Of a stretch of DNA of 64,000 bases, positions 4,147 to 64,000 are shown piece by piece. Below the pieces are notes generated by a model that did no database searches, was not told the DNA's origin, and saw nothing but the letters and a program-made list of their open reading frames with translations. A program made the position numbers and the translations under genes. Position 1 is the first letter of the stretch. Every line of letters starts with the position of its first letter. This stretch comes from Nitrospirae bacterium GWF2_44_13 (GTDB lineage Bacteria; Nitrospirota; Thermodesulfovibrionia; Thermodesulfovibrionales; UBA1546), in the NCBI GenBank assembly GCA_001805105.1, contig MHEE01000015.1, positions 294,024-358,023 on the forward strand, written 5' to 3'.

Positions 4147-4219
4147 GTTAATGGGTGAATAGGTTATTCGGATTAAACATTTTTGCGATTCACCCATTCA
4201 CCGATTCACCTATTCACCG
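4142..4219. repeat. Octamer palindromic repeat, family B (intergenic)
   Basis: AATAGGTT-AATGGGTG-AATAGGTT arm followed by (NATTCACC)x4 arm. Confidence 0.85.
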
Positions 4220-4233
4220 AGAGAGGAGCAATT

Positions 4234-6191: not shown

Positions 6192-6268
6192 CAAGATGCA
6201 GGATACAGGATACAGGATACAAGATACAACCCGCAAGAGATATATCTTGCATCTTGCATCATGCATCG
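6192..6268 (+). repeat. Heptamer palindromic element, family A copy 1 (in rlpA N-terminus)
   Basis: CAAGATG-(CAGGATA)3-CAAGATA ... TATCTTG-CATCTTG-CATCATG. Confidence 0.9.
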
Positions 6269-6996
6269 TTCTTTTTTTAATCACGGCTTTTCTCACTTCC
6301 TGCGGTGCACCAAGATACGGATACTACGAAGATTATCCCAAATACGAAACCCAGCCGAAGGAAAGCCCTCAGGAGACAAAACCATCAGGCACAAAACAAC
6401 CTGATGCAATACAGCCTGAGACAAAATATATAGTTGCCTCATGGTATGGGCCTGATTTTCATGGAAAGCTAACATCATCAGGCGAGCCTTATAATATGTA
6501 TGCAAATACATGCGCGCATAAGGAATATCCTTTCGGGACAAAGTTGAAAGTAACAAATATCTCAAACAATAAAACAACCGACTGCACCGTGACCGATAGA
6601 GGGCCCTTCATTCAGGGAAGGGACTTAGACCTATCCTATGCCTGTGCAAAAGAGATTGAGTTAATAGGACCGGGAACCGGAAAAGTAAGAATTGAACCGC
6701 TCGGAAGGGACATGCGGTATATAAAATATATAAAATATTCTCCATTGGGAGGCAGCGGGCCGTTTACAATACAGATAGGCTCATACAAAGACCTGTCTAA
6801 TGCCACACGCATGAAGGCGTCGCTGGAATTTAAATACAGCAAGGTGTATATAACGGAAGCGGAAATAAGCGGCAGCAAATACTACAGGGTAAGGGTCGGC
6901 AAGTTCAATTCAAAAGACGATGCATTCACCCTCGCAAAAACACTTGCGGATGAGGGATATAACACGCTGATTGCACCTTATGAGGAAAGGATATGA
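6196..6996 (+). CDS. rlpA: RlpA-family septal lytic transglycosylase lipoprotein (DPBB + SPOR)
   Basis: LTSC lipobox, ASWYG..FHG, DRGPF, DLS motifs, C-terminal SPOR (IQIGSY, YRVRVG). Confidence 0.88.
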   Translation: MQDTGYRIQDTTRKRYILHLASCIVLFLITAFLTSCGAPRYGYYEDYPKYETQPKESPQETKPSGTKQPDAIQPETKYIVASWYGPDFHGKLTSSGEPYNMYANTCAHKEYPFGTKLKVTNISNNKTTDCTVTDRGPFIQGRDLDLSYACAKEIELIGPGTGKVRIEPLGRDMRYIKYIKYSPLGGSGPFTIQIGSYKDLSNATRMKASLEFKYSKVYITEAEISGSKYYRVRVGKFNSKDDAFTLAKTLADEGYNTLIAPYEERI

Positions 6997-10461: not shown

Positions 10462-11823
10462 ATGGCTAAAGCAAAAACATTTTATCAGTGCCAGGCGTGC
10501 GGATACGTGAGCCCTAAATGGCTCGGCAAATGTCCTGACTGCGGGGAATGGAATACCCTTGCTGAAGAGAAAAAAGAGACCAGGCAGGGAAGAAAATCAT
10601 CGGGAAGGTCTGAACCCCAGCCCCTGAATACAATCGTCAGCGGAAAAGAAAAACGCACAACAACAGGGATAAAGGAATTTGACAGGGTTCTGGGAGGCGG
10701 GGTCGTTGCAGGCTCTGTAATCCTTGTCGGCGGAGACCCCGGAATCGGAAAATCAACTGTCCTTATTCAGGCGCTCTCCGGCCTCTCAAAAAAATATGAA
10801 AGCGTGCTCTATGTATCAGGAGAGGAATCTCCTGAACAGATAAAACTGAGAGCGGAAAGGCTTTCCGTAGATTCCGGCAAGATAATGCTTCTTGCCGAAA
10901 CATCGCTTGAGAATATACTTGACACAGCCTCAGAACTAAAACCCGGCGCAATAGTAATTGATTCCATCCAGACAATGTACACAGAGGAAATATTGTCGGC
11001 CCCGGGGTCTGTAAGTCAGGTGCGGGAATGTGCGGCAAGGTTGATGTTCTTTGCAAAGAAATCGGCAATACCAGTTTTCCTTGTAGGTCATGTGACAAAA
11101 GAAGGCGCAATTGCAGGGCCGAGGGTTCTTGAACATATAGTTGACACTGTGCTTTACTTTGAAGGAGACAGAGGGCATTCTTACAGGATTTTAAGGACTG
11201 TTAAAAACCGCTTTGGTTCAACAAATGAGATAGGCGTGTTTGAGATGACGGATTCAGGGCTTTCGGAGATTGAGAATCCATCTGAATTATTCCTCTCGGA
11301 AAGGCCGCTTAATGTCTCAGGCTCGACAGTTGTTGCAAGCATGGAAGGGACCAGGCCGCTGATGGTGGAGATTCAGGCTCTGGCCTCGCCGACAACATTC
11401 GGAATGCCGAGAAGGACAAGCATCGGAGTTGATTTCAACAGGGTTAATCTTCTGACTGCAGTACTTGAGAAAAAGGCAGGGCTCCATCTCAGTGGGATGG
11501 ATATATTTATAAACGTAGTCGGCGGGCTCAAAATAATTGAACCTGCTATTGACCTTGGAATTATAATGACGATTGCATCATCGCTGAGGGACATCCCCAT
11601 TGACCCTAAGATATTTATGTTCGGCGAGGTGGGCCTTTCAGGCGAAATACGCGCAGTTGCTTATGCGGAGCAGAGGATTAAGGAAGCCGCAAAGATAGGA
11701 TTCAAAAAAGCGCTCATGTCCAGAACAAACAGCGAAAGGCTGACGGCAGTTGAGCCTTTCGGGCTTGAGATAATGGGAGCGGGAAATGTTGAAGAGGCGC
11801 TTGAGGCAGTGCTCGGAATCTAA
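10462..11823 (+). CDS. radA: DNA repair protein RadA/Sms
   Basis: N-terminal C4 Zn finger, GDPGIGKST, KNRFG. Confidence 0.97.
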   Translation: MAKAKTFYQCQACGYVSPKWLGKCPDCGEWNTLAEEKKETRQGRKSSGRSEPQPLNTIVSGKEKRTTTGIKEFDRVLGGGVVAGSVILVGGDPGIGKSTVLIQALSGLSKKYESVLYVSGEESPEQIKLRAERLSVDSGKIMLLAETSLENILDTASELKPGAIVIDSIQTMYTEEILSAPGSVSQVRECAARLMFFAKKSAIPVFLVGHVTKEGAIAGPRVLEHIVDTVLYFEGDRGHSYRILRTVKNRFGSTNEIGVFEMTDSGLSEIENPSELFLSERPLNVSGSTVVASMEGTRPLMVEIQALASPTTFGMPRRTSIGVDFNRVNLLTAVLEKKAGLHLSGMDIFINVVGGLKIIEPAIDLGIIMTIASSLRDIPIDPKIFMFGEVGLSGEIRAVAYAEQRIKEAAKIGFKKALMSRTNSERLTAVEPFGLEIMGAGNVEEALEAVLGI

Positions 11824-11936
11824 GATGCAAGATACAGGATACAGGATACAGGATAAAAAAAATCATGCATCATGCATCATGCATCATACATCTGTATTTA
11901 CCCGATTCACCGATTCACCGATTCACCGATTCACCC
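11822..11936 (+). repeat. Family A copy 2 followed by family B octamers (in lipoprotein N-terminus)
   Basis: AAGATG-CAAGATA-(CAGGATA)3-A-tract-(CATCATG)n, then (GATTCACC)4. Confidence 0.9.
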
Positions 11937-12562
11937 TTCTGCTCTTCTGCGCTTCTGTTCTCCTGCTTTTATCTTCCTGCACTGCAAAGAGAGTTGAACT
12001 GCCTGATTACGAAGGCGTTGATGTAAGAACAGTTATCACCGAGCGCAAGAGCATAAAAGGCGTTAACGCAACTTTTCATGTTGAGTTTGAGAAGACTGAC
12101 AGCACAATGACAGGAGACGCTGCGCTCACGCTTACAGAGAAAGCCCTCGAGCTGAGGATATACTCTATGGGATTTCTCATGGCAGAAATAAAAGAGACAG
12201 ATGGGATAATAAAAAGCAATCCTCCCTCTGACAGGAATAAAAACATAATACTGGCAGAAGGTTTAAGAAGCAGTATATTGTGGTGGCTGATAAAAGACTA
12301 TGATGTTGAAGAGCAAAACAATAGTTATCATATCAGGAATTCAAGCCGGAAGATTGTCATTGATAAAAAAACCATGCTCCCTGTATCCCAGACGATAGAA
12401 CTTGAGAATGGAAAAGAACTCCGCATTTCTTACGGGGAACCTGCAAACAGCAATGGATTCTGGTATCCCTCAAGAATGAAGATAGAACTGTCAAAGTATG
12501 TTGTGAAACTGAAGATTAAGAGTATCTCCTTTATTCCTCACTCAGCCCAAGGTCCACAGTAA
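11825..12562 (+). CDS. Predicted outer-membrane lipoprotein (possibly LolB/DUF4292-like)
   Basis: Hydrophobic stretch and LSSC lipobox, beta-rich body; start moved to ATG 11825 just after the radA stop. Confidence 0.6.
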   Translation: MQDTGYRIQDKKNHASCIMHHTSVFTRFTDSPIHRFTLLLFCASVLLLLSSCTAKRVELPDYEGVDVRTVITERKSIKGVNATFHVEFEKTDSTMTGDAALTLTEKALELRIYSMGFLMAEIKETDGIIKSNPPSDRNKNIILAEGLRSSILWWLIKDYDVEEQNNSYHIRNSSRKIVIDKKTMLPVSQTIELENGKELRISYGEPANSNGFWYPSRMKIELSKYVVKLKIKSISFIPHSAQGPQ

Positions 12563-29469: not shown

Positions 29470-30414
29470 TTATCCTGCCTTATTTATTAACCCGTCAAGA
29501 ATCTTCCATGCCCTTTTGAATATCTCATTGACATCCTGAATGCCTGTAGTATCTATCCAGTGTATATCCTCTTCTTTATTGAACCATGTATACTGCCTCT
29601 TGGCATAACGCTTTGTGCTCCTCTTAGTGAGCCTTATTGCCTCTTCAAGCGGTATCTCCCCATTAAGATACATTGCAATCTCTTTGTATCCTATTGCCTG
29701 CAGAGCGGTGAGGGGGTGAATCGGTGAAGAGGTGAATCGTTCTATCAGACTCTTTACTTCGTCTACAAATCCCGCCTCAATCATTTTATCAACCCGTTCT
29801 TCAATCATTTTATAAAGCTCTTTTCTGTCCCTTGTAAGCCCGATCTTTATGAACTCGTATGGAAGCGGTCTTGTCAATTTCTGCTGGAGTTCCGACATGC
29901 CCTGTTTTGTCTTCAGACAGACTTCAATCGCCCTTATAATGCGCCTTGTGTCAGCAGGCATTATTTTTGACGCCGCCTCAGGGTCAAGTTCCAACAGATA
30001 ACTATAAAGCGCGCCGTCCTGTCCTTCCTCAAGAGAAGCAAGTTCTTCCCTTAGCTTCCAGTCAGCGGAAGGCCCGCTGAATATCCCCCTTGTCATTGCC
30101 TTTATGTAAAGCCCTGTCCCTCCTGCAACGATAGGGATTTTACCTCTTCTGTGAAGCTCCTCTATTATTGGCGTCACATCTTCAATGTATCTGCCAACGC
30201 TGAATGGCTCTGCAGGACTTACACTATCTATCATGTAATGCTTATAGCTAATCCTCTGCGCTTCAGACAGCTTTGCAGTACCGATATCCATTCCTTTATA
30301 TATTTGCATTGAATCTGCGCTGATTATCTCTGTGCCCAAAGCCTTTGCAATAAGGATGGAGACCTCTGTCTTTCCAACGCCTGTCGGTCCTAATAAAATA
30401 ATTACTTTATTCAT
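29470..30414 (-). CDS. miaA: tRNA dimethylallyltransferase
   Basis: [29 protein letters not shown]. Confidence 0.97.
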   Translation of the reverse strand: MNKVIILLGPTGVGKTEVSILIAKALGTEIISADSMQIYKGMDIGTAKLSEAQRISYKHYMIDSVSPAEPFSVGRYIEDVTPIIEELHRRGKIPIVAGGTGLYIKAMTRGIFSGPSADWKLREELASLEEGQDGALYSYLLELDPEAASKIMPADTRRIIRAIEVCLKTKQGMSELQQKLTRPLPYEFIKIGLTRDRKELYKMIEERVDKMIEAGFVDEVKSLIERFTSSPIHPLTALQAIGYKEIAMYLNGEIPLEEAIRLTKRSTKRYAKRQYTWFNKEEDIHWIDTTGIQDVNEIFKRAWKILDGLINKAG

Positions 30415-51654: not shown

Positions 51655-52737
51655 ATGAAGCTTTATGCTATCGGCGAATCATCCCTTCTGAAAACAATCC
51701 GCAGAAGATTTACCGTAAAATCAAAAGATGTCATCGTGGGCATAGGCGATGACACGGCAGTAATAAAACCCTCGGGCAATAATTTACTGGCAACCACTGA
51801 TATGATGGTTGAAGGCATTCACTTTGACCTGAACCTTACAACGCCCTATCAGCTCGGATTCAAACTCGTATCCGTAAATGTTAGCGACATCTATGCGATG
51901 GGTGGAAGGCCTCAATATCTTTTGCTTGATATTGCATTGAACAAAAATACAGAGCAGTCATTTGTTGACAGATTTTTCGACGGCATACGCCGTGCAATGA
52001 AATTATACGGGGTCTTTCTTATAGGCGGAGACCTTTCTTCTTCAAGAAAAGATATAGTCCTTGCAGCAACACTCATAGGTGATGCGAAAAAGCATATAAG
52101 ACGCTCAGGCGCAAAACCCGGGGACAGGATATATGTAACAGGGAATCTCGGAGATTCAGCATGCGGGCTGGAAGTGCTTAAGAGGATAAAACAACCGTTT
52201 CATATCAAAAAAACGATACAAGATGCAAGATACAAGATTCAGGATAAAAAAAATCATGAATCGTGCATCATGAATCGTGCATCTGAACCACTAACGCTGA
52301 ACTCTGACCTTTCTAAGCTTGGACTCACATGGAATATTGTTAGCCCTCTGCTTAAGAGGCATCTCATGCCTGAGGCAAGAAATCCGGAGAAATTTATCAG
52401 ATATGCTACTTCAATGATTGACTTAAGCGACGGGCTGTTTATTGACCTCTCAAGGCTCTGCGATGAAAGCAGGGTCGGCGCAAAGATATTCATAGAGCGC
52501 ATACCTGTCTCCGGCCGGATGAGAACTGCATCTTCCCTGCTTGGGCTGGACGCCATGAAACTTGCCTGCTCAGGCGGAGAAGACTATGAACTGCTTTTCA
52601 CGGCGCCGGCAGATAAAAAAATCAACGCCGTATATATCGGCGACATCGTAAAATCAGGAAGAAAAATCATAGATAAAAACGGCGGAGAGAAAAAGTTCTC
52701 CGCATCCGGATACCAACATTTTGAAACTCAGAGATAG
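51655..52737 (+). CDS. thiL: Thiamine-monophosphate kinase (with in-frame repeat insertion)
   Basis: GIGDD.A, NVSDI.AMG, IDLSDGL, GGEDYELLFT. Confidence 0.95.
   Translation: MKLYAIGESSLLKTIRRRFTVKSKDVIVGIGDDTAVIKPSGNNLLATTDMMVEGIHFDLNLTTPYQLGFKLVSVNVSDIYAMGGRPQYLLLDIALNKNTEQSFVDRFFDGIRRAMKLYGVFLIGGDLSSSRKDIVLAATLIGDAKKHIRRSGAKPGDRIYVTGNLGDSACGLEVLKRIKQPFHIKKTIQDARYKIQDKKNHESCIMNRASEPLTLNSDLSKLGLTWNIVSPLLKRHLMPEARNPEKFIRYATSMIDLSDGLFIDLSRLCDESRVGAKIFIERIPVSGRMRTASSLLGLDAMKLACSGGEDYELLFTAPADKKINAVYIGDIVKSGRKIIDKNGGEKKFSASGYQHFETQR
52213..52311 (+). repeat. Family A copy 4 (in thiL) plus a TGAACT-like heptamer tail
   Basis: Encodes TIQDARYKIQDKKNHESCIMNRASEPLTLNSDL. Confidence 0.88.
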
Positions 52738-53158
52738 ACTCAGAAACATTTTAACTGTCAAGGATTCTCCGCGCAGGCTGGCAATGGCATTTTCCGTTGG
52801 TATCTTTATAGGCATGTCCCCTCTGTTTGGAATTCATACAATACTCGGGCTGATAGCGGCATGGGTTTTCGGACTTAACAGGATTGTCACAATCACAGGA
52901 GTATATATAACAAACCCATGGACTATCGTCCCTATCTATACTTTCAGCGCTTATATCGGCGCAAAATGCCTCGGCATAAAACAGATAGTTCCGGAAATAG
53001 ACTGGGCGCATATCACCTTCAGCAACTTTGCGCACGAATTAAATCCGCTGTTGACACCTTTTGTCTTTGGCACACTGCTGATTGGTTTTATCTCGGCTGT
53101 TATAAGCTATTTTATCATCTACCATGCGGTGAAAAAGGCACGCTCTAATGTCAAATAA
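52721..53158 (+). CDS. DUF2062-like membrane protein
   Basis: DSP..LA.AF..G.FIG..P..G, NP.T..P motifs. Confidence 0.8.
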   Translation: MKLRDRLRNILTVKDSPRRLAMAFSVGIFIGMSPLFGIHTILGLIAAWVFGLNRIVTITGVYITNPWTIVPIYTFSAYIGAKCLGIKQIVPEIDWAHITFSNFAHELNPLLTPFVFGTLLIGFISAVISYFIIYHAVKKARSNVK

Positions 53159-54662
53159 GTTTTCTCTTGTAAGCATGGGATGTCCGAAAAACCTTGTTGA
53201 CTCTGATAATCTTACGGAGAAACTCATCAACTGCGGATTATCGTACATTGATAATTATGAAAATGCAGAGATACTCATCATAAACACATGCGGTTTCATA
53301 CAAGACGCAAAAAAAGAGTCTATAGCAGAGATACTAAAGCTTGCTGAGATAAAAAAGGGGCCGGAAAATATGCAGGATTCAGTCTCCTCAGGCGACTCGC
53401 TAAGGCGAGGATCCAGAATTCAGGATAAAAAAAATCGTGAATCGTGCATCGTGCATCATGAATCAAAAGGCAATAATAAGAAACTTATCGTCTTCGGATG
53501 TCTTGCAAAAAGGTACAGAGACGAACTCCTCAAAGAGATTCCGGAGATAGATGCAATATTCGGCGTCGGAGAAGATGAAAGGATAGTTGAGTATTGCAAA
53601 AGTCAAAGGAAGATGCAGGATGCAGGATACATGACGCAGGATAAAAAAAATCAGGCATCGTGCATCGTGAATCATGCATCGTTTTTATTCGCCTCATCTT
53701 CCTATGCCTATCTCAAAATAGCGGAAGGCTGCAGCAGAAAATGCACATATTGCGTTATCCCCTCAATCAGAGGAGAATACAAAAGCGCCGCACCTGATGA
53801 AATTCTTAAAAAAGCAGAGGGATATATAAATGCAGGGATAAAAGAGCTTATTCTTATTGCGCAGGATACTGCATCTTACGGCAAAGACCTCAACGGTTAT
53901 GACATTGCTGCTCTCCTCAAAGGCCTCTGCTCAATAAAAGGTGATTTCAGGATACGGCTTCTCTATGCCTATCCTGCGTCAATAAAAGAATCGCTGCTGA
54001 AGGTAATTGCCGAAGAAGAAAAGATATGCAAGTACCTTGATATACCCTTTCAGCACTCTGAGGACAGAATCCTAAAGCTCATGAAAAGAGGAGGCGGCAG
54101 AAATGAATACCTGAACCTCACCAGAAAAATCAGGCGCGCCATACCTGGTATTGCGCTCAGGACAACATTCATAGCGGGTTTTCCCTCCGAGACAGAGGAG
54201 GAATTCAACTCGCTTATAAAATTCATGGAGGAAGCAGAGTTTGACAGGCTTGGCGCCTTTAAATATTCAAAAGAAGAAGGCACGCCTGCCGCAAAACTCA
54301 AGGGACATCTGACAGAGGCAATAAAAAACAGAAGGCTTGATACAATAATGAGGCATCAGGCAGATATATCCCTGAAGAAAAACAAGGCATTAATAGGCAG
54401 GAGATTTAAGGCTGTAGTTGACGAGGTTGACAATGAGATAGCCATCGGAAGATTATACTCTCATGCGCCCGAGATAGACGGAGTGGTGATTATTGAAGAT
54501 ACAGGATTCAAGATACAAGATGCAGGATACAAGATAAAAGATAAAAATGATGCATCATGCATCAGGCATTATGCATCATTGGAATTAAAAGCCGGTAATT
54601 TTGTTACTGTAGAGATCACGGATGTTTATGATTATGATCTGAAAGGGAAGATTGTTGTGTAA
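53148..54662 (+). CDS. rimO: Ribosomal protein S12 methylthiotransferase RimO (three in-frame repeat insertions)
   Basis: GCPKNLVDS, NTCGFI, KIAEGC...C.YC.IP, APEIDG, YDL.G. Confidence 0.95.
   Translation: MSNKFSLVSMGCPKNLVDSDNLTEKLINCGLSYIDNYENAEILIINTCGFIQDAKKESIAEILKLAEIKKGPENMQDSVSSGDSLRRGSRIQDKKNRESCIVHHESKGNNKKLIVFGCLAKRYRDELLKEIPEIDAIFGVGEDERIVEYCKSQRKMQDAGYMTQDKKNQASCIVNHASFLFASSSYAYLKIAEGCSRKCTYCVIPSIRGEYKSAAPDEILKKAEGYINAGIKELILIAQDTASYGKDLNGYDIAALLKGLCSIKGDFRIRLLYAYPASIKESLLKVIAEEEKICKYLDIPFQHSEDRILKLMKRGGGRNEYLNLTRKIRRAIPGIALRTTFIAGFPSETEEEFNSLIKFMEEAEFDRLGAFKYSKEEGTPAAKLKGHLTEAIKNRRLDTIMRHQADISLKKNKALIGRRFKAVVDEVDNEIAIGRLYSHAPEIDGVVIIEDTGFKIQDAGYKIKDKNDASCIRHYASLELKAGNFVTVEITDVYDYDLKGKIVV
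53370..53464 (+). repeat. Family A copy 5 (in rimO) with nested 27-nt GC hairpin
   Basis: Encodes MQDSVSSGDSLRRGSRIQDKKNRESCIVHHES. Confidence 0.88.
53610..53681 (+). repeat. Family A copy 6 (in rimO)
   Basis: Encodes KMQDAGYMTQDKKNQASCIVNHAS. Confidence 0.88.
54496..54579 (+). repeat. Family A copy 7 (in rimO TRAM domain)
   Basis: Encodes DTGFKIQDAGYKIKDKNDASCIRHYAS. Confidence 0.88.
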
Positions 54663-58468: not shown

Positions 58469-58545
<77 letters not shown>

Positions 58546-58557
58546 AAGGCAAAAAAA

Positions 58558-58633
58558 TGGTAGGCGGAACAGGGATTGAACCTGTGACATCAGCCTTGTA
58601 AGGGCTGCGCTCTCCCAGCTGAGCTATCCGCCC
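58558..58633 (-). tRNA. tRNA-Val(TAC)
   Basis: GGGCGGA...TCCGCCT-ACCA, anticodon CT-TAC-AA. Confidence 0.95.
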
Positions 58634-58702
58634 GAAAAGAGACTAATATTAAACTATATAGGGATATACTTTGTCAAATATATTGTGATAAAATGAGGCA
58701 GA

Positions 58703-59371
58703 ATGAAGGATCCAGGATGCATGATACAAGATTCAGGATGCATGATACAAGATTCAGGATGCATGATACACGATACAAGATTCAGGATTACTGATAAAAA
58801 AACTATCCTGCATCGTGTATCGTGTATCATGCATCGGAAAAGTCGTACATCATGCATCGTGCATCGTGATAACAACGGCTTCACCCTCATTGAAACAATA
58901 ATGGTGATGGTCATTGCAGTCATTCTTGCTGCCGTGGTTGCCGTCAGATGGAGCCCTTTTGATACAATCAAACTCAACAGCGCAACAAGAAAAGTCGCCG
59001 GTGACATAAGATACGCCCAAAAAGTTGCAATCTCAACTCAGGCAACATACGCCGCAATTGCGTTCAACACAAACGGATATACTGTATATGATACTTACTC
59101 ATCTATCATTTCCCGAAGTCCCGGTGACCCCTGCTCGGATAATGGAGGAAACTTTGAGGTGGCATTTAATACGCCAAGGTGCAGTAATTTCAGCGGAGTA
59201 ACAATAACCACCAACATCACCGATGACGTATTGCAGTTCAACAGCCTTGGTACACCCCTTCAGGGCATCTTCGCCTCAGTCATCCCCTCCGACAGAACCA
59301 TAACTATAACTTATAAAGACAGTAAACCCATCTACATTGAAGTAGGCACAGGAAGGGTGAGCTATCAATGA
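58703..59371 (+). CDS. Type IV minor pilin (FimU/GspH/MshC-like) with repeat-derived leader
   Basis: DNNG|FTLIE cleavage motif, DIRYAQ..A, FNSLG.P, TGRV. Confidence 0.85.
   Translation: MKDPGCMIQDSGCMIQDSGCMIHDTRFRITDKKTILHRVSCIMHRKSRTSCIVHRDNNGFTLIETIMVMVIAVILAAVVAVRWSPFDTIKLNSATRKVAGDIRYAQKVAISTQATYAAIAFNTNGYTVYDTYSSIISRSPGDPCSDNGGNFEVAFNTPRCSNFSGVTITTNITDDVLQFNSLGTPLQGIFASVIPSDRTITITYKDSKPIYIEVGTGRVSYQ
58706..58869 (+). repeat. Family A copy 8 (longest; prepilin leader)
   Basis: Includes tandem CAGGATGCATGATACAAGATT 21-mers, then a CATCGTG/TATCATG arm. Confidence 0.9.
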
Positions 59372-59964
59372 GCAGGATACAGGATAAAAAGAAGATGCAA
59401 GATACAAGATACATGATACATGATAAAGAAAAAAACAAGTTAGGCATCTTGCATCTTGACAATAAAGGCTTCTCCCTCATTGAGATAATCATGATAATCA
59501 TAGTAGTTTCTATTGCAATCCCTGCGCTTTTAATTTTAGTTGGCGGTGAAGCAGGCCGCGGGGTTGAGCCCGAGTTAAGGATTACTGCAACAAATGTGGC
59601 GCAGCAATTAATGGACGAGATAATGACAAAATGCTGGGATGAAACAGCTACAACAACCGCTAACTGCGGCGGAACAGTATCATATTCTGATTTGGGAATT
59701 GACGGCGGTGAAACTGCCGGAACTTTATCAACTTATGATGACGTGGATGACTATACTACAGGAGGCGTTCCTGCCGTAGTTATACCTGCGGGCGGAGTAT
59801 CTTATTCAAGAAGCGTTGTTGTATGTTATGTTCCATACAACGACCTAACTACTACCACTTGTAACACAACCGCTGTATTAGGAACAGATTATAAACGCAT
59901 AGCAGTAACAGTCACCCGCGGGGACACTACTGTTACGCTTACAACAGTGATGACGAACTACTAA
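59368..59964 (+). CDS. Type IV minor pilin (PilV/MshD-like) with repeat-derived leader
   Basis: DNKG|FSLIE, YDDVDDY, KRIAVTV. Confidence 0.85.
   Translation: MSRIQDKKKMQDTRYMIHDKEKNKLGILHLDNKGFSLIEIIMIIIVVSIAIPALLILVGGEAGRGVEPELRITATNVAQQLMDEIMTKCWDETATTTANCGGTVSYSDLGIDGGETAGTLSTYDDVDDYTTGGVPAVVIPAGGVSYSRSVVVCYVPYNDLTTTTCNTTAVLGTDYKRIAVTVTRGDTTVTLTTVMTNY
59373..59458 (+). repeat. Family A copy 9 (prepilin leader)
   Basis: CAGGATA/CAAGATA/CATGATA units ... CATCTTG x2. Confidence 0.88.
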
Positions 59965-59969
59965 ATTAA

Positions 59970-60058
59970 CAAGATGCAGGATACAAGATACATGATACAT
60001 GATAAAGAAAAAACCAAGTTAGGCATCGTGCATCGTGCATCATGCATCATGCATCGTG
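59970..60058 (+). repeat. Family A copy 10 (prepilin leader)
   Basis: CAAGATG-CAGGATA-CAAGATA-CATGATA x2 ... CATCGTG/CATCATG x5. Confidence 0.88.
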
Positions 60059-60573
60059 ATAACAAAGGCATTACCCTCATTGAGATGGTCCTTGGCATGG
60101 TGCTCATAGGCATTGTTGCGCTTGTTGTGGCTAATGCGCTCTCAACAGGGATTACGGGATTTTTTGTAGTGGACAACCGCAAAGAGGCCCTTGATCAGAC
60201 AAGGGTTGCGATGGATAGGATGACAAAAGAGATAAGGAACTTAAAAAATAGCGCAAGCGTAACGACAGGAAGCGCAACGCAGTTCTGCTTCACAATGTTG
60301 GACGGCACAAATAACAACGTATTGGTAAATTACAGCTATGTAGATCCTAATATCAGACGCGAAGAGGGAGGCGCTTGCGTTGCTGGAAACGGTCAAACCC
60401 TTGCAACTAATATAGCAGCAGCCACTTTCTCCTTTGCGTACATTCAGGCAAATGGAACTGAAGGGAGCACGTTTTCTTCCGTCACTACAAAAAGAATCAA
60501 GATTGTAATTCCGTGCACCATCTCAAGTGAAACCGTCACGCTTGAGACAGAGGTCTGGCCGCGGAATCTGTGA
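59974..60573 (+). CDS. Type IV minor pilin (PilW/MshO-like) with repeat-derived leader
   Basis: DNKG|ITLIE, R.AMDRM.KEIR, C-terminal V.PRN. Confidence 0.85.
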   Translation: MQDTRYMIHDKEKTKLGIVHRASCIMHRDNKGITLIEMVLGMVLIGIVALVVANALSTGITGFFVVDNRKEALDQTRVAMDRMTKEIRNLKNSASVTTGSATQFCFTMLDGTNNNVLVNYSYVDPNIRREEGGACVAGNGQTLATNIAAATFSFAYIQANGTEGSTFSSVTTKRIKIVIPCTISSETVTLETEVWPRNL

Positions 60574-60585
60574 TATAATTTTTAT

Positions 60586-61518
60586 ATGAAACATAAACTA
60601 TCAAATAACTCCGGCTTTTCCATTGTAGCAACTGTGATGATTATGATGATACTTGCGCTTTTTGCCGCTGCTGCCGTCTCTCTTATTACAACCGCAGCAG
60701 GCACCGGCATTCAGGAAGAGCGTGGCACGCAGGCTTTTTATATTGCAGACGGAGGAATGCAGTACACACTCAAGAAAAACACTTATCCGGATTATGATAC
60801 TGCTGCTTCGTCAATACCTCTCGGAGACGGCTCGTTCACTGTCACTGTTCCAACGCTTACTTCAGATGCGGCAGTAGGGGACACATCTCTATCTGTATCC
60901 TCCACAGACGGTTTTACCGCAGCGCCAGACAGCAGTTACTGGACGCTGATATGCGGGGTAACAGGCACGCCGAGACCGACTGTCGGAATGAGTTTTGACT
61001 GTGAAAAAATAAGCTGTACTTCCAAATTCTCAAGCTGCACAAGGGGAAGGGACAGCACAGACGCCGCCGCGCATCCTTCTAATTCCGTTGTCATGATGTA
61101 TTCATGGGATACAGGAAAGACAACAACCTTAGCCCAGGCTCTTGTGCCGGGCGCTAAGTGCACAGGCGCTTCTCCAAAAATATGCGTCACTGACACATCG
61201 CCTTTTGCCGATTCCGGTTTTATCAGGATATATAATGCTACTGAAAACAATATAGAGGATGTTTTCTATGACGGCATCGGCAGCGGCACAGGCACATGCG
61301 GCGGCGGCTGCACAGCATGTCTGGGAACTAACGGATGCACAAGAAGGGCTTTTGACGGCAATGGGAATGGAACAGTCAATCATATATCCGGCACTGCGAT
61401 TTATCAGTCTGAATTCAGCGTGCTTACCACATCAACTGGTATAGTTCCTGGATCAATTTTAACAGGCAACATAAAACGGGTTGTACAGGGCAGTATCCTG
61501 TCGCTTAAGGATCCATAG
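60586..61518 (+). CDS. Type IV minor pilin (PilX/MshP-like)
   Basis: NSG|FSIVA (no Glu5), QAFYIA.GG motif; Cys-rich body. Confidence 0.8.
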   Translation: MKHKLSNNSGFSIVATVMIMMILALFAAAAVSLITTAAGTGIQEERGTQAFYIADGGMQYTLKKNTYPDYDTAASSIPLGDGSFTVTVPTLTSDAAVGDTSLSVSSTDGFTAAPDSSYWTLICGVTGTPRPTVGMSFDCEKISCTSKFSSCTRGRDSTDAAAHPSNSVVMMYSWDTGKTTTLAQALVPGAKCTGASPKICVTDTSPFADSGFIRIYNATENNIEDVFYDGIGSGTGTCGGGCTACLGTNGCTRRAFDGNGNGTVNHISGTAIYQSEFSVLTTSTGIVPGSILTGNIKRVVQGSILSLKDP

Positions 61519-61520
61519 GA

Positions 61521-64000
61521 ATGAAAAAACATTTTCTCATAGGCTTAATAACTTCACTCTTAATGCTGGTCTCTGCATTGACAATTGTGAACGACGCACA
61601 GGCCGCGCCGCCGACTTTTCAGGCAGCGGGAACCGCAGTCAGCAGTATAGGCACAGCCAGTCCGGCGTGGCCGGCGCACGAAATAAATGATGTCGCTCTT
61701 CTTTTTGTTGAGAGCACAGGCGGCCAAGCTGCAACTCTTTCTGCGCCGGCAGGATTCGTTGCACTAACAAACAGTCCGCAGGCTACGGGCGCCGGCACAG
61801 CAGGAACACGAATTACCGTGTTCTGGGCGCGCGCTACGTCCTCTTCAATGTCAACGCCTACTATTGCCGATGCCGGCAACCATGTTTACGCACAAATCAT
61901 CACGTACAGGGGCGTAATCACCACCTGTAATCCTTTTGACATAACTGGCGGCGGCGTCAAGGCAGTGGCCAGCACATCTGTCACTGTGACTGGCGTCACA
62001 ACAACAGTAGCAGACACGCTCATTGTTCAGGCTGTTGCGCGTGACAACGCATCGGCAGCAGCACAGTTCAATTCTCAGACAAATGCGAATCTAACGAGCA
62101 TAGCCGAGCGCGCTGATGCAGGAACAGCTCAAGGCAATGGCGGCGGCTTTGCTGTATGGGATGGCGTCATGGCAGCAGCAGGCGCAACAGGGGATACTAC
62201 CGCGAACATTGATAACTCTGTTGTCAATGCGTTCCTGACAATTGCCCTGAAGCCGCCAACCACTGGAATACCGGCTTACAAGTCAGAAGGGACTGCAGAC
62301 AGCGGCACAGGCACAGCCACTCCTGCATGGCCTACTCATGCAATAGACGACCTTGCGCTTCTTTTTGTTGAGAGCGCCGGGGGCGAAGCTGTCACGCTTT
62401 CTGATGCCCAGGGATTCAGCGCAGTATTAAACAGTCCTCAGGCAACCGGCGCAGGCACAGCAGGAACACGGCTTTCTGTATTCTGGGCGCGCGCCACATC
62501 AACAAGTATGGCGGCGCCTACTGTTGCTGACCCCGGCAACCATGTTTACGCACAAATTTTAACCTACAGCGGCGTAACAACTTCCGGCGACCCGTGGAAC
62601 GTAACAGGCGGCGGCGTCAAGGCAGTTGCCAGCACGTCTGTCACTGTGACCGGCGTTACAACCACAGTAGCAAACACACTTATTGTTCAGGCTGTTTCCA
62701 GGGACAACGACTCAGCAGCAGCAGCGTTCAGCGCTCAGACAAATGCAACCCTGTTATGCGTCAGCACTGATGAGCGAACCGATGCAGGAACAGCTTCAGG
62801 CAACGGCGGCGGTTTTGCTGTATGGGATGACGCGAAGCCAACAGCAGGCGCAACAGGGGATACTACCGTGACTGTTACGTCAAGCATTAACGCCTTTCTG
62901 ACTATTGCCCTGAGGCCCCCTTCCTTCGGAGCGCCGAACAAGCTGGCATTTTTACAGCAACCGGGCAATACCATATTCAATAGCGCCATAACACCGGCTG
63001 TAACAGTAGAAATTCAGGATGTAGACGGAAACCGGGTTGCGACAGCAACAAATTCAGTCACCATAGCTATTGGCACTAACCCTGCGGGCGGAACCTTGAG
63101 CGGCACGCTAACTGTTAATGCTGTGGCAGGGGTGGCGACATTCAACGACCTGTCTATCAACAATGCTGGAGACGGCTACACACTAACGGCCAGTTCAGGC
63201 GGGCTGACCGGCGCCACCAGCAACGCGTTCAATATAACTACCGGAGCTTACGGCTTAACACAATGCGCGGGTTCGCGATTTGGCGGTGACCTGGGCTGCA
63301 CTGCCAACGATGTTCAGATAACCAATATATCAGTTGTCGGCGGCCTTGCATCCTGCGAAGGCGGCAGCACCATCACAGTGGACCTTGCTATCACAGTCAA
63401 TTCGGGATCGCCCAACCGTTATGACGTCGGCGTTTTTATTTCCAACGACGGCACAGACCCGCAGTTGGCCTCGGCTGCCAGTTGTACCGTGGGGATTCTG
63501 CCAACCACTGACCCTCCATTCCGTAACACAGACCCCGGACCGTGGAGCGGCACATTAGACATCTGCGGCGACGTCAACGGCACCATGAATGGCGGCACCG
63601 GCTCCGGCACTTTCACAATATATAACGTAAATATACTCTGCAAGTCCCTCACCGGAAGCGGGGGTAACTTATACATTCCATTCGTTGTGAGTTGGGATCA
63701 GCAATCAAGCCCCAGCGGTGCAACTTGCACATCCATCGCTAATCCGGTGCCGGGAACTGTATCCAAATGCAACGCTCCGCTTATCGCCCAAGGGACAGTC
63801 AATGTCGTGGTTCTGCCGACAATCACCAAGACCGATAACAAAACAACACTTTCACCCGGCGAAATCACCAACTATACTGTTGTCATCAGCAATACAACAG
63901 GCACTACATTAACCAACGTGGTCTTCAAAGACCCTGAAGTAACAGGCCTCACTGCCAACAGCGTAACCTGCTCCGGAGCAGCGTGTCCTTGTGCGAGCTG
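61521..64000 (+). CDS. Large secreted adhesin-like protein (partial, >826 aa)
   Basis: Open from ATG 61521 to window end; signal peptide ..AQA; two ~220-aa repeats, Ig-like KLAF.QQP domain, Cys-rich domain, DUF11-like ITKTD...YTVVISN. Confidence 0.85.
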   Translation, partial: MKKHFLIGLITSLLMLVSALTIVNDAQAAPPTFQAAGTAVSSIGTASPAWPAHEINDVALLFVESTGGQAATLSAPAGFVALTNSPQATGAGTAGTRITVFWARATSSSMSTPTIADAGNHVYAQIITYRGVITTCNPFDITGGGVKAVASTSVTVTGVTTTVADTLIVQAVARDNASAAAQFNSQTNANLTSIAERADAGTAQGNGGGFAVWDGVMAAAGATGDTTANIDNSVVNAFLTIALKPPTTGIPAYKSEGTADSGTGTATPAWPTHAIDDLALLFVESAGGEAVTLSDAQGFSAVLNSPQATGAGTAGTRLSVFWARATSTSMAAPTVADPGNHVYAQILTYSGVTTSGDPWNVTGGGVKAVASTSVTVTGVTTTVANTLIVQAVSRDNDSAAAAFSAQTNATLLCVSTDERTDAGTASGNGGGFAVWDDAKPTAGATGDTTVTVTSSINAFLTIALRPPSFGAPNKLAFLQQPGNTIFNSAITPAVTVEIQDVDGNRVATATNSVTIAIGTNPAGGTLSGTLTVNAVAGVATFNDLSINNAGDGYTLTASSGGLTGATSNAFNITTGAYGLTQCAGSRFGGDLGCTANDVQITNISVVGGLASCEGGSTITVDLAITVNSGSPNRYDVGVFISNDGTDPQLASAASCTVGILPTTDPPFRNTDPGPWSGTLDICGDVNGTMNGGTGSGTFTIYNVNILCKSLTGSGGNLYIPFVVSWDQQSSPSGATCTSIANPVPGTVSKCNAPLIAQGTVNVVVLPTITKTDNKTTLSPGEITNYTVVISNTTGTTLTNVVFKDPEVTGLTANSVTCSGAACPCAS

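Follow-up and report, generated by a model that had tools for sequence, protein, structure and literature searches.

Three consecutive minor-pilin genes in a 64,000-nucleotide (nt) stretch of the genome of an uncultured groundwater Nitrospirota bacterium (the window; genome 1.99 Mb, coded G000) carry copies of a dispersed hairpin repeat in the region that encodes the prepilin leader. Counted from the first ATG, the leaders of these genes comprise 59, 34 and 32 amino acids (aa) and are almost entirely encoded by the repeat, while the fourth pilin-like gene of the operon has a plain 10-aa leader (MKHKLSNNSG|F) without it; this pattern had been proposed in a preliminary description of the sequence and was confirmed in the open reading frames (ORFs). 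The arrays are best read as passengers tolerated in a disposable leader, a safe haven for the element, with copying between neighbouring pilin genes, and a probability of about 0.6 was given to this reading. The repeat consists of CANGATN units (F), an A-rich loop and inverse NATCNTG units (R), and the genes and elements concerned are the following.

58703 to 59371, plus strand: minor pilin 1, FimU/GspH-like; leader 58703-58879 (59 aa), mature start at 58880, alternative GTG at 58859.
59368 to 59964, plus strand: minor pilin 2, PilV-like; leader 59368-59469 (34 aa), alternative TTG at 59449.
59974 to 60573, plus strand: minor pilin 3, in the PilW position of the operon; leader 59974-60069 (32 aa), alternative ATG at 60049.
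58707 to 58868, plus strand: element 1, composite; F arm of about 11.7 units (58707-58788), loop ACTGATAAAAAAAC, R arrays 58805-58831 and 58849-58868 with a short spacer between them.
59373 to 59458, plus strand: element 2; two F arrays, a loop with the shared spacer and a short R array.
59970 to 60058, plus strand: element 3; F array followed by the loop found in element 2 and by five R units.

From the ATG onwards, the reading frames of pilins 1, 2 and 3 cross the repeat and continue into the motifs G|FTLIE, G|FSLIE and G|ITLIE, respectively, and all three have the features of class III signal peptides, namely a hydrophilic leader ending in Gly, a hydrophobic residue at +1, Glu at +5 and a hydrophobic stretch, with TIGR02532 matches to genes 1 and 3. 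Pfam N_methyl was matched by pilin 1 (E=1.3e-6, together with NCBIfam GspH, ComGD and prepilin domain matches) and by pilin 3 (E=2.6e-6), and fell under the cut-off in pilin 2 (16.4 bits against 21.2), although G|FSLIE and a hydrophobic helix are present there. The genome encodes a prepilin peptidase (peptidase A24, PF01478; 79.6 bits at C9:84885-85220). An ATGA overlap reported earlier at the start of the second gene is real, the ATG at 59368 overlapping the TGA of pilin 1 at 59369-59371, and the ATG of pilin 3 lies 9 nt past the upstream TAA. Period-7 arrays were located by Tandem Repeats Finder at 58707-58788, 58805-58868, 59392-59429, 59444-59458, 59969-60008 and 60023-60058, and the window as a whole contains 60 paired adjacent CANGATN units where 0.21 were expected from shuffles. 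The composite form of element 1 was also present in the orthologue of a relative, G001.

The placement of the arrays within a translated leader was examined in the orthologous operon of 13 other genomes of the same family (f1) and 4 outgroups, the 14 family genomes contributing 35 pilin genes. Leaders of 18-80 aa were obtained from the first ATG in 30 of the 35 genes, and in 20 of the 35 the shortest leader from any ATG, GTG or TTG was still 14-51 aa. The 30 codons ahead of the cleavage glycine were open in the pilin frame in 25/35 genes against 5/35 and 0/35 in the other frames (Fisher p 1.4e-11, a value that overstates the case, the family genomes being related and not independent). At 17 of 21 junctions the first ATG was located -11 to +9 nt from the upstream stop, and the outgroup G021 has the same junctions (-4, +1) but leaders of 5 and 6 aa. 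Leaders in the outgroups varied, with 4-6 aa in G021, 4 aa for pilin 1 of G035 and 13-19 aa by first ATG in G025 (8-19 aa by shortest start), and that of pilin 2 in G031 may be long. Upstream of gene 1, a -10-like TGaTA[A/G]AAT box followed by the ATG was present in 9 of 13 related genomes whichever repeat came next, at a spacing of 8-9 nt in eight genomes and of 6 or 9 nt in G002. The corresponding sites in the window are given below.

58671 to 58679, plus strand: conserved TTGTCAAAT box, within a candidate promoter at 58671-58694.
58686 to 58694, plus strand: TGaTAAAAT, read as an extended -10; the ATG at 58703 begins 8 nt downstream.

A promoter at this position would give a leaderless or nearly leaderless mRNA, and the conserved distance from box to ATG, together with the start junctions and the open frames, suggests that array insertion took place downstream of a start that stayed fixed and upstream of the cleavage site. 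The leader units themselves vary by species: CANGAT was read in G000, G001 and G011 and in some of G010, and different 7-nt units in the rest. Conserved starts, leaders of 18-80 aa and the frequent lack of a short alternative argue that the arrays sit within a translated, disposable leader, and the long form is likewise predicted to be translated in G000. Other hairpin-like inserts were seen in the same positions in leaders of G031 and G013, including G/C-run palindromes encoding PPHPPL..KGGRGG, which indicates that the leader site collects more than one kind of repeat.

We propose that CANGATN/NATCNTG arrays would persist in this lineage where the encoded peptide is harmless. In the pilin genes they would fill the leader frame from behind the ancestral start codon down to the final 3-4 residues ahead of the cleavage glycine, that start codon having stayed at the promoter in gene 1 and at the stop/start junction in genes 2 and 3. 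The long leaders would be translated and then removed by the prepilin peptidase of this genome, and since the mature pilins would be left unchanged after leader removal, the leader would act as a permissive site. Gene conversion would homogenise the copies among neighbouring pilin genes. Processing of the long leader by PilD and neutrality of the insert are both predicted. Type IVb pilins and pilins of Firmicutes have long class III leaders that are similarly hydrophilic, end in Gly and are followed by Glu5 and a hydrophobic helix, with tens of residues cut by prepilin peptidase, but in the accessible part of that source (PMC6916266) these leaders are not described as repeat-encoded, whereas the leader length here derives from a genome-wide repeat and differs among close relatives.

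The element, termed family A in the preliminary description, is a dispersed and stranded hairpin repeat of 50-160 nt with a variable number of units. A total of 109 clusters were found in the genome, 69 of which had an F array and then an R array within 60 nt, while the order R then F was not observed (0 cases). The sense form reads CA[G/A]GAT units, an A-run and ATC[A/G]TG units, and the complement CA[T/C]GAT, a T-run and ATC[C/T]TG. The 90 elements with at least 4 units were divided into 33 inside long ORFs, 22 at N-termini, 8 at C-termini, 23 between genes and 4 closed in all frames; these class counts are approximate, as the gene set was a crude longest-ORF call. Genic elements were almost all in the sense form and in one frame, reading ..QDTGYRIQDKKNHASCIMHH.., and the pilin leaders use that frame. 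Elsewhere in the window, ThiL (51655-52737) contains one in-frame element (52219-52279) and RimO (53148-54662) contains three (53433-53460, 53616-53676 and 54502-54579). In an alignment, RimO of G012, G021 and G025 was seen to lack these inserts, and at the second site G001 has a different insert. Triple units were present in 18 of 19 other f1 genomes, while among 21 genomes of other families of the order 1-7 matches were found in 5 and none in 16; the element is largely confined to one family of relatives.

A genome survey of prepilins for repeat leaders, as proposed in the preliminary description, pointed to enrichment. The prepilin motif was matched 18 times, and 10 matches were accepted and 8 dropped (7 internal in other proteins and 1 a second match in the same gene). 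An element ending 9 nt before the glycine codon was found in 4 of the 10 prepilins against 18 of 1904 other crude ORFs, the three adjacent pilin copies not being independent events. Where elements were N-terminal, a hydrophobic export segment came next in 10/18 cases against 488/1796 (27%) in the background. Faced with the choice offered earlier between a safe haven and a domesticated device, the safe haven is backed by the genome-wide in-frame family and by the N-terminal and prepilin enrichment. Phase variation and cassette exchange were not supported, as set out below, and a tuning role for the element in minor-pilin expression is conceivable.

Copying between the leaders, suggested earlier from a spacer common to leaders 2 and 3 (copies 9 and 10 of the repeat), was supported. 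Over the F arm and loop, including that spacer, 50 of 52 aligned bases were identical (only these two window rows of a six-sequence alignment of leaders were used). Similarity between paralogues was also greater in the leader than in the mature part, with 92% identity before the cleavage site and 62% after it for pilins 1 and 3 of G000, and 36/36 nt identical before it and 71% after it for the same pair in G001. The loop of element 3 is nearly matched by that of the G010 orthologue of pilin 3, and because of this common loop, leader 2 probably copied its own from leader 3.

Several observations weigh against the safe-haven reading. At 59 aa, the leader of pilin 1 is longer than the 6-51 aa known for class III signal peptides from the accessible part of PMC6916266. 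Element 1 folds at -77 kcal/mol with 20 continuous pairs right after the proposed start, a stem that would hinder the ribosome and that resembles an RNase III substrate. The promoter before gene 1 is proposed from conservation, and a consensus promoter scan called none before gene 1 here, the spacer to the -35-like box being only 12 nt. The crude gene set behind the class counts and the dependence among the adjacent pilin copies also count on this side. In G011 the frame of pilin 2 is closed upstream of the first in-frame ATG, which gives a 13-aa leader starting MNRASCIV.., and upstream of pilin 3 in G013 only a GTG/TTG 44 codons back is available, the first ATG giving 7 aa (MHR..). Both leader starts were read as R-arm sequence, and they indicate that short starts can be used. 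Finally, each of the 4 pilins of G000 that bear an element also offers an in-frame GTG, TTG or ATG lying exactly 7 codons ahead of the leader end, so that the suggestion that internal starts could shorten the leaders holds for the window genes (GTG 58859, TTG 59449 and ATG 60049).

These codons would be the true starts under an alternative that is possible but unlikely, in which translation begins 7 codons before the leader end and the arrays are untranslated spacer or 5' untranslated region (UTR) between genes. The codon is present in the three window pilins and in that at C11:22746, and the 8 leaders of CANGAT type examined in G001, G010 and G011 likewise all have one, giving 6-7 aa. The resulting M-H-R/L-D-x-x-G product resembles the 7-aa leaders of array-free pilins of this genome (MLRNEKG), and pilin 2 of G011 and probably pilin 3 of G013 must start late, with 13 and 7 aa. 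The -7 codon is, however, probably a by-product of the NATCNTG unit, and by a tally of the listed peptide ends about 32 of about 58 elements across the genome terminate in that phase, so its occurrence in 4/4 pilins is not remarkable. A special junction at the -7 start codons was considered and rejected, since this end phase is the commonest in the family. No Shine-Dalgarno-like sequence precedes the -7 codon, the 20 nt upstream being repeat units, while other genes show AGGAGG-like sites. The conserved upstream starts, the open frames and the 20/35 genes of the family without a short start favour the long form.

A combined explanation, which we regard as quite unlikely, draws on a second minor-pilin cluster of the genome (G000:C11:18500-24091). 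This cluster holds the only two PF05635 genes of the genome (23S rRNA IVS-type four-helix-bundle), each directly before a prepilin gene. One of them is bracketed by CANGAT arrays and the other, read by eye, by AAATGAC-type 7-nt arrays. No PF05635 gene was found between inverted arms in the pilin operon of the window by ORF and Pfam search, and the gene-less elements of the window could be remnants of PF05635 cassettes. Under this explanation, selfish hairpins with heptamer arms would preferentially land at prepilin 5' ends and in their full form would carry the IVS-type gene, the highly conserved DNA for G-F-T-L-I-E and the helix would supply homology for copying, and the stem, with one start before it and another in its 3' arm, would be exploited for minor-pilin dosage, for example by RNase III. 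Compared with miniature inverted-repeat transposable elements, the inverse arrays act as long inverted repeats, but no common flank or duplication was evident by eye in 69 flanks, no transposase was identified, and the PF05635 cassette is the only candidate for a full form of the element.

A domesticated hairpin, in which an mRNA stem would set a low minor-pilin output through slowed initiation or RNase III cleavage in the manner of hmw1A, is decidedly unlikely. RNA folds were significant for all three leaders, with -77.3 kcal/mol (z -9.3) for element 1 (58695-58885), -15.2 kcal/mol (z -2.5) for element 2 and -26.1 kcal/mol (z -3.3) for element 3, and for 16 of 30 long leaders of family f1. 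Long leaders persist across the family while their units change, the genome encodes RNase III, and hmw1A of Haemophilus influenzae provides a precedent, having an (ATCTTTC)n heptamer hairpin in its 5' UTR that is processed by RNase III (accessible part of PMC12721329). The other 14 of the 30 long leaders were without a significant fold, and the same elements are found within housekeeping genes and in intergenic regions of every arrangement, which makes a pilin-specific role unnecessary. The likeness to hmw1A, as far as the accessible part of that source goes, lies in the tandem repetition of a 7-nt unit at the start of a surface-structure gene and in the long RNA hairpin; its array is perfect, untranslated and more than 10 units long, with proven length variation and regulation, whereas the pilin units are imperfect, lie in an open frame and were not seen to vary in contigs. 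An Rfam search returned only the two tRNAs above threshold, and sub-threshold matches of element 1 to plant and animal microRNA precursors were set aside as generic hairpin matches. No terminators were called at the elements by a terminator scan.

Phase variation, in which gain or loss of a 7-nt unit or of an A in the loop would shift the leader frame and toggle single minor pilins, had been put forward in the preliminary description and is now very improbable. In its favour, a length of 7 nt is not divisible by 3, the arrays are situated downstream of the start and upstream of the cleavage site, and leader frames in G002 are broken beside an A7 run. The units vary at positions 3 and 7, however, so that perfect runs are short; a long run of identical units was not encountered, the period-7 arrays having 71-100% matches and the best long array a 21-nt period. 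The same arrays are found in essential genes, where switching would harm, and an in-frame -7 start would buffer any frame shift. Assembled contigs from three DNA samples of different studies and one RNA sample were compared with the window, with breaks within the F arms of elements 1 and 3. The contigs of the three DNA samples were identical to it across element 2 as well as across the loop and R arm of element 3, with zero-difference spans at 58741-60003 in sample X7, at 58741-59430, 59405-60009 and 59984-60700 in X6 and at 59405-60013 and 59984-60366 in X9, and element 2 was bridged without differences by a 1263-nt contig. Variants in unit number were not seen in these contigs, a weak argument given that contigs hide rare variants. 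Contigs of the RNA sample (X20) differed from the window by 7-14 letters per piece and therefore come from relatives, and apparent contig joints at the repeats were rejected as cross-matches to other family copies. G002 was likewise rejected as an example of switching, the internal deletion of its pilin 2 pointing to decay. Its operon (C11:21108-24599) looks decayed, the N-terminal part of pilin 2 being lost and pilins 1 and 3 having leader frames that are closed beside homopolymer runs. Exchange of pilin cassettes, also raised in the earlier account, is not supported, given that paralogue similarity falls at the cleavage site from 92-100% upstream of it to 62-71% downstream.

The borders of the operon and its remaining genes are listed below.

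58469 to 58545: tRNA-Asp (ARAGORN and Rfam).
58558 to 58633, minus strand: tRNA-Val (ARAGORN and Rfam tRNA matches).
60586 to 61518, plus strand: fourth pilin-like gene, with a weak Pfam match to PilX_N (E=0.0065, under the cut-off).

The tRNAs are divergent from the pilin operon and form its left border, and the one next to it recurs ahead of pilin 1 at 11 of the 13 listed loci. A large ORF (61521-63998) follows the pilin genes and runs past the end of the window; it contains an internal duplication of about 230 aa (..PAWP.H.I.D.ALLFVES.GG.. twice), gave only a weak DUF11 match and, by position, may occupy the place of PilY1-type proteins in such operons. Two further elements of the window, 6192-6263 and 11828-11881, form N-terminal extensions before the signal peptides of lipoprotein-like genes (6196-6996 and 11786 or 11825-12562) and begin directly past the stops of the upstream genes. 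Tandem 8-nt repeats at 11902-11935, 4186-4220 and 29706-29739 (CCGATTCA x4.2, ATTCACCC and GGTGAATC) look like a second short-unit family, and one of them falls in the N-terminal region of the lipoprotein-like gene 11786-12562.

Elements of comparable behaviour have been described in other bacteria. The Rickettsia palindromic elements (RPEs) are dispersed palindromic repeats that are often in frame in unrelated genes and encode a conserved peptide while the host protein is apparently functional (accessible part of PMC10969869). The window element is likewise dispersed, palindromic and in frame in genes with a conserved peptide, but it is built of tandem 7-nt units in two inverse arrays of 50-160 nt, belongs to Nitrospirota and uses the site of a cleaved class III signal peptide, so that the likeness, drawn by description from that part of the source, is that it works like an RPE and not that it is a member, given the difference in unit-array build and host lineage. 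Heptanucleotide repeat families of Geobacter metallireducens (PMC2700814) and intergenic TAACTGA direct repeats of Beggiatoaceae (PMC4679880) are also multicopy, have 4-5 tandem heptanucleotides within and between genes and are without a known function, though they were proposed as regulatory sites or RNAs, and the accessible parts of these two sources connect them neither with pilin leaders nor with a fixed reading frame. In the literature searched on prepilins, heptanucleotide repeats and related topics, no description of repeat-encoded pilin leaders was found, and none of heptamer-array hairpins, which are abundant in uncultured lineages.

The safe-haven reading implies that tens of repeat-encoded residues can be accommodated in a signal sequence that is later cleaved off, and that this arrangement is stable across a bacterial family despite turnover of the units. 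Such pilins will be missed, or given wrong starts, by gene callers and pilin predictors that assume short leaders. The leaders of 18-80 aa provide a natural test set for the tolerance of prepilin peptidase, and the pilin case is among the clearest places to ask whether heptamer hairpins are purely selfish or sometimes regulatory.

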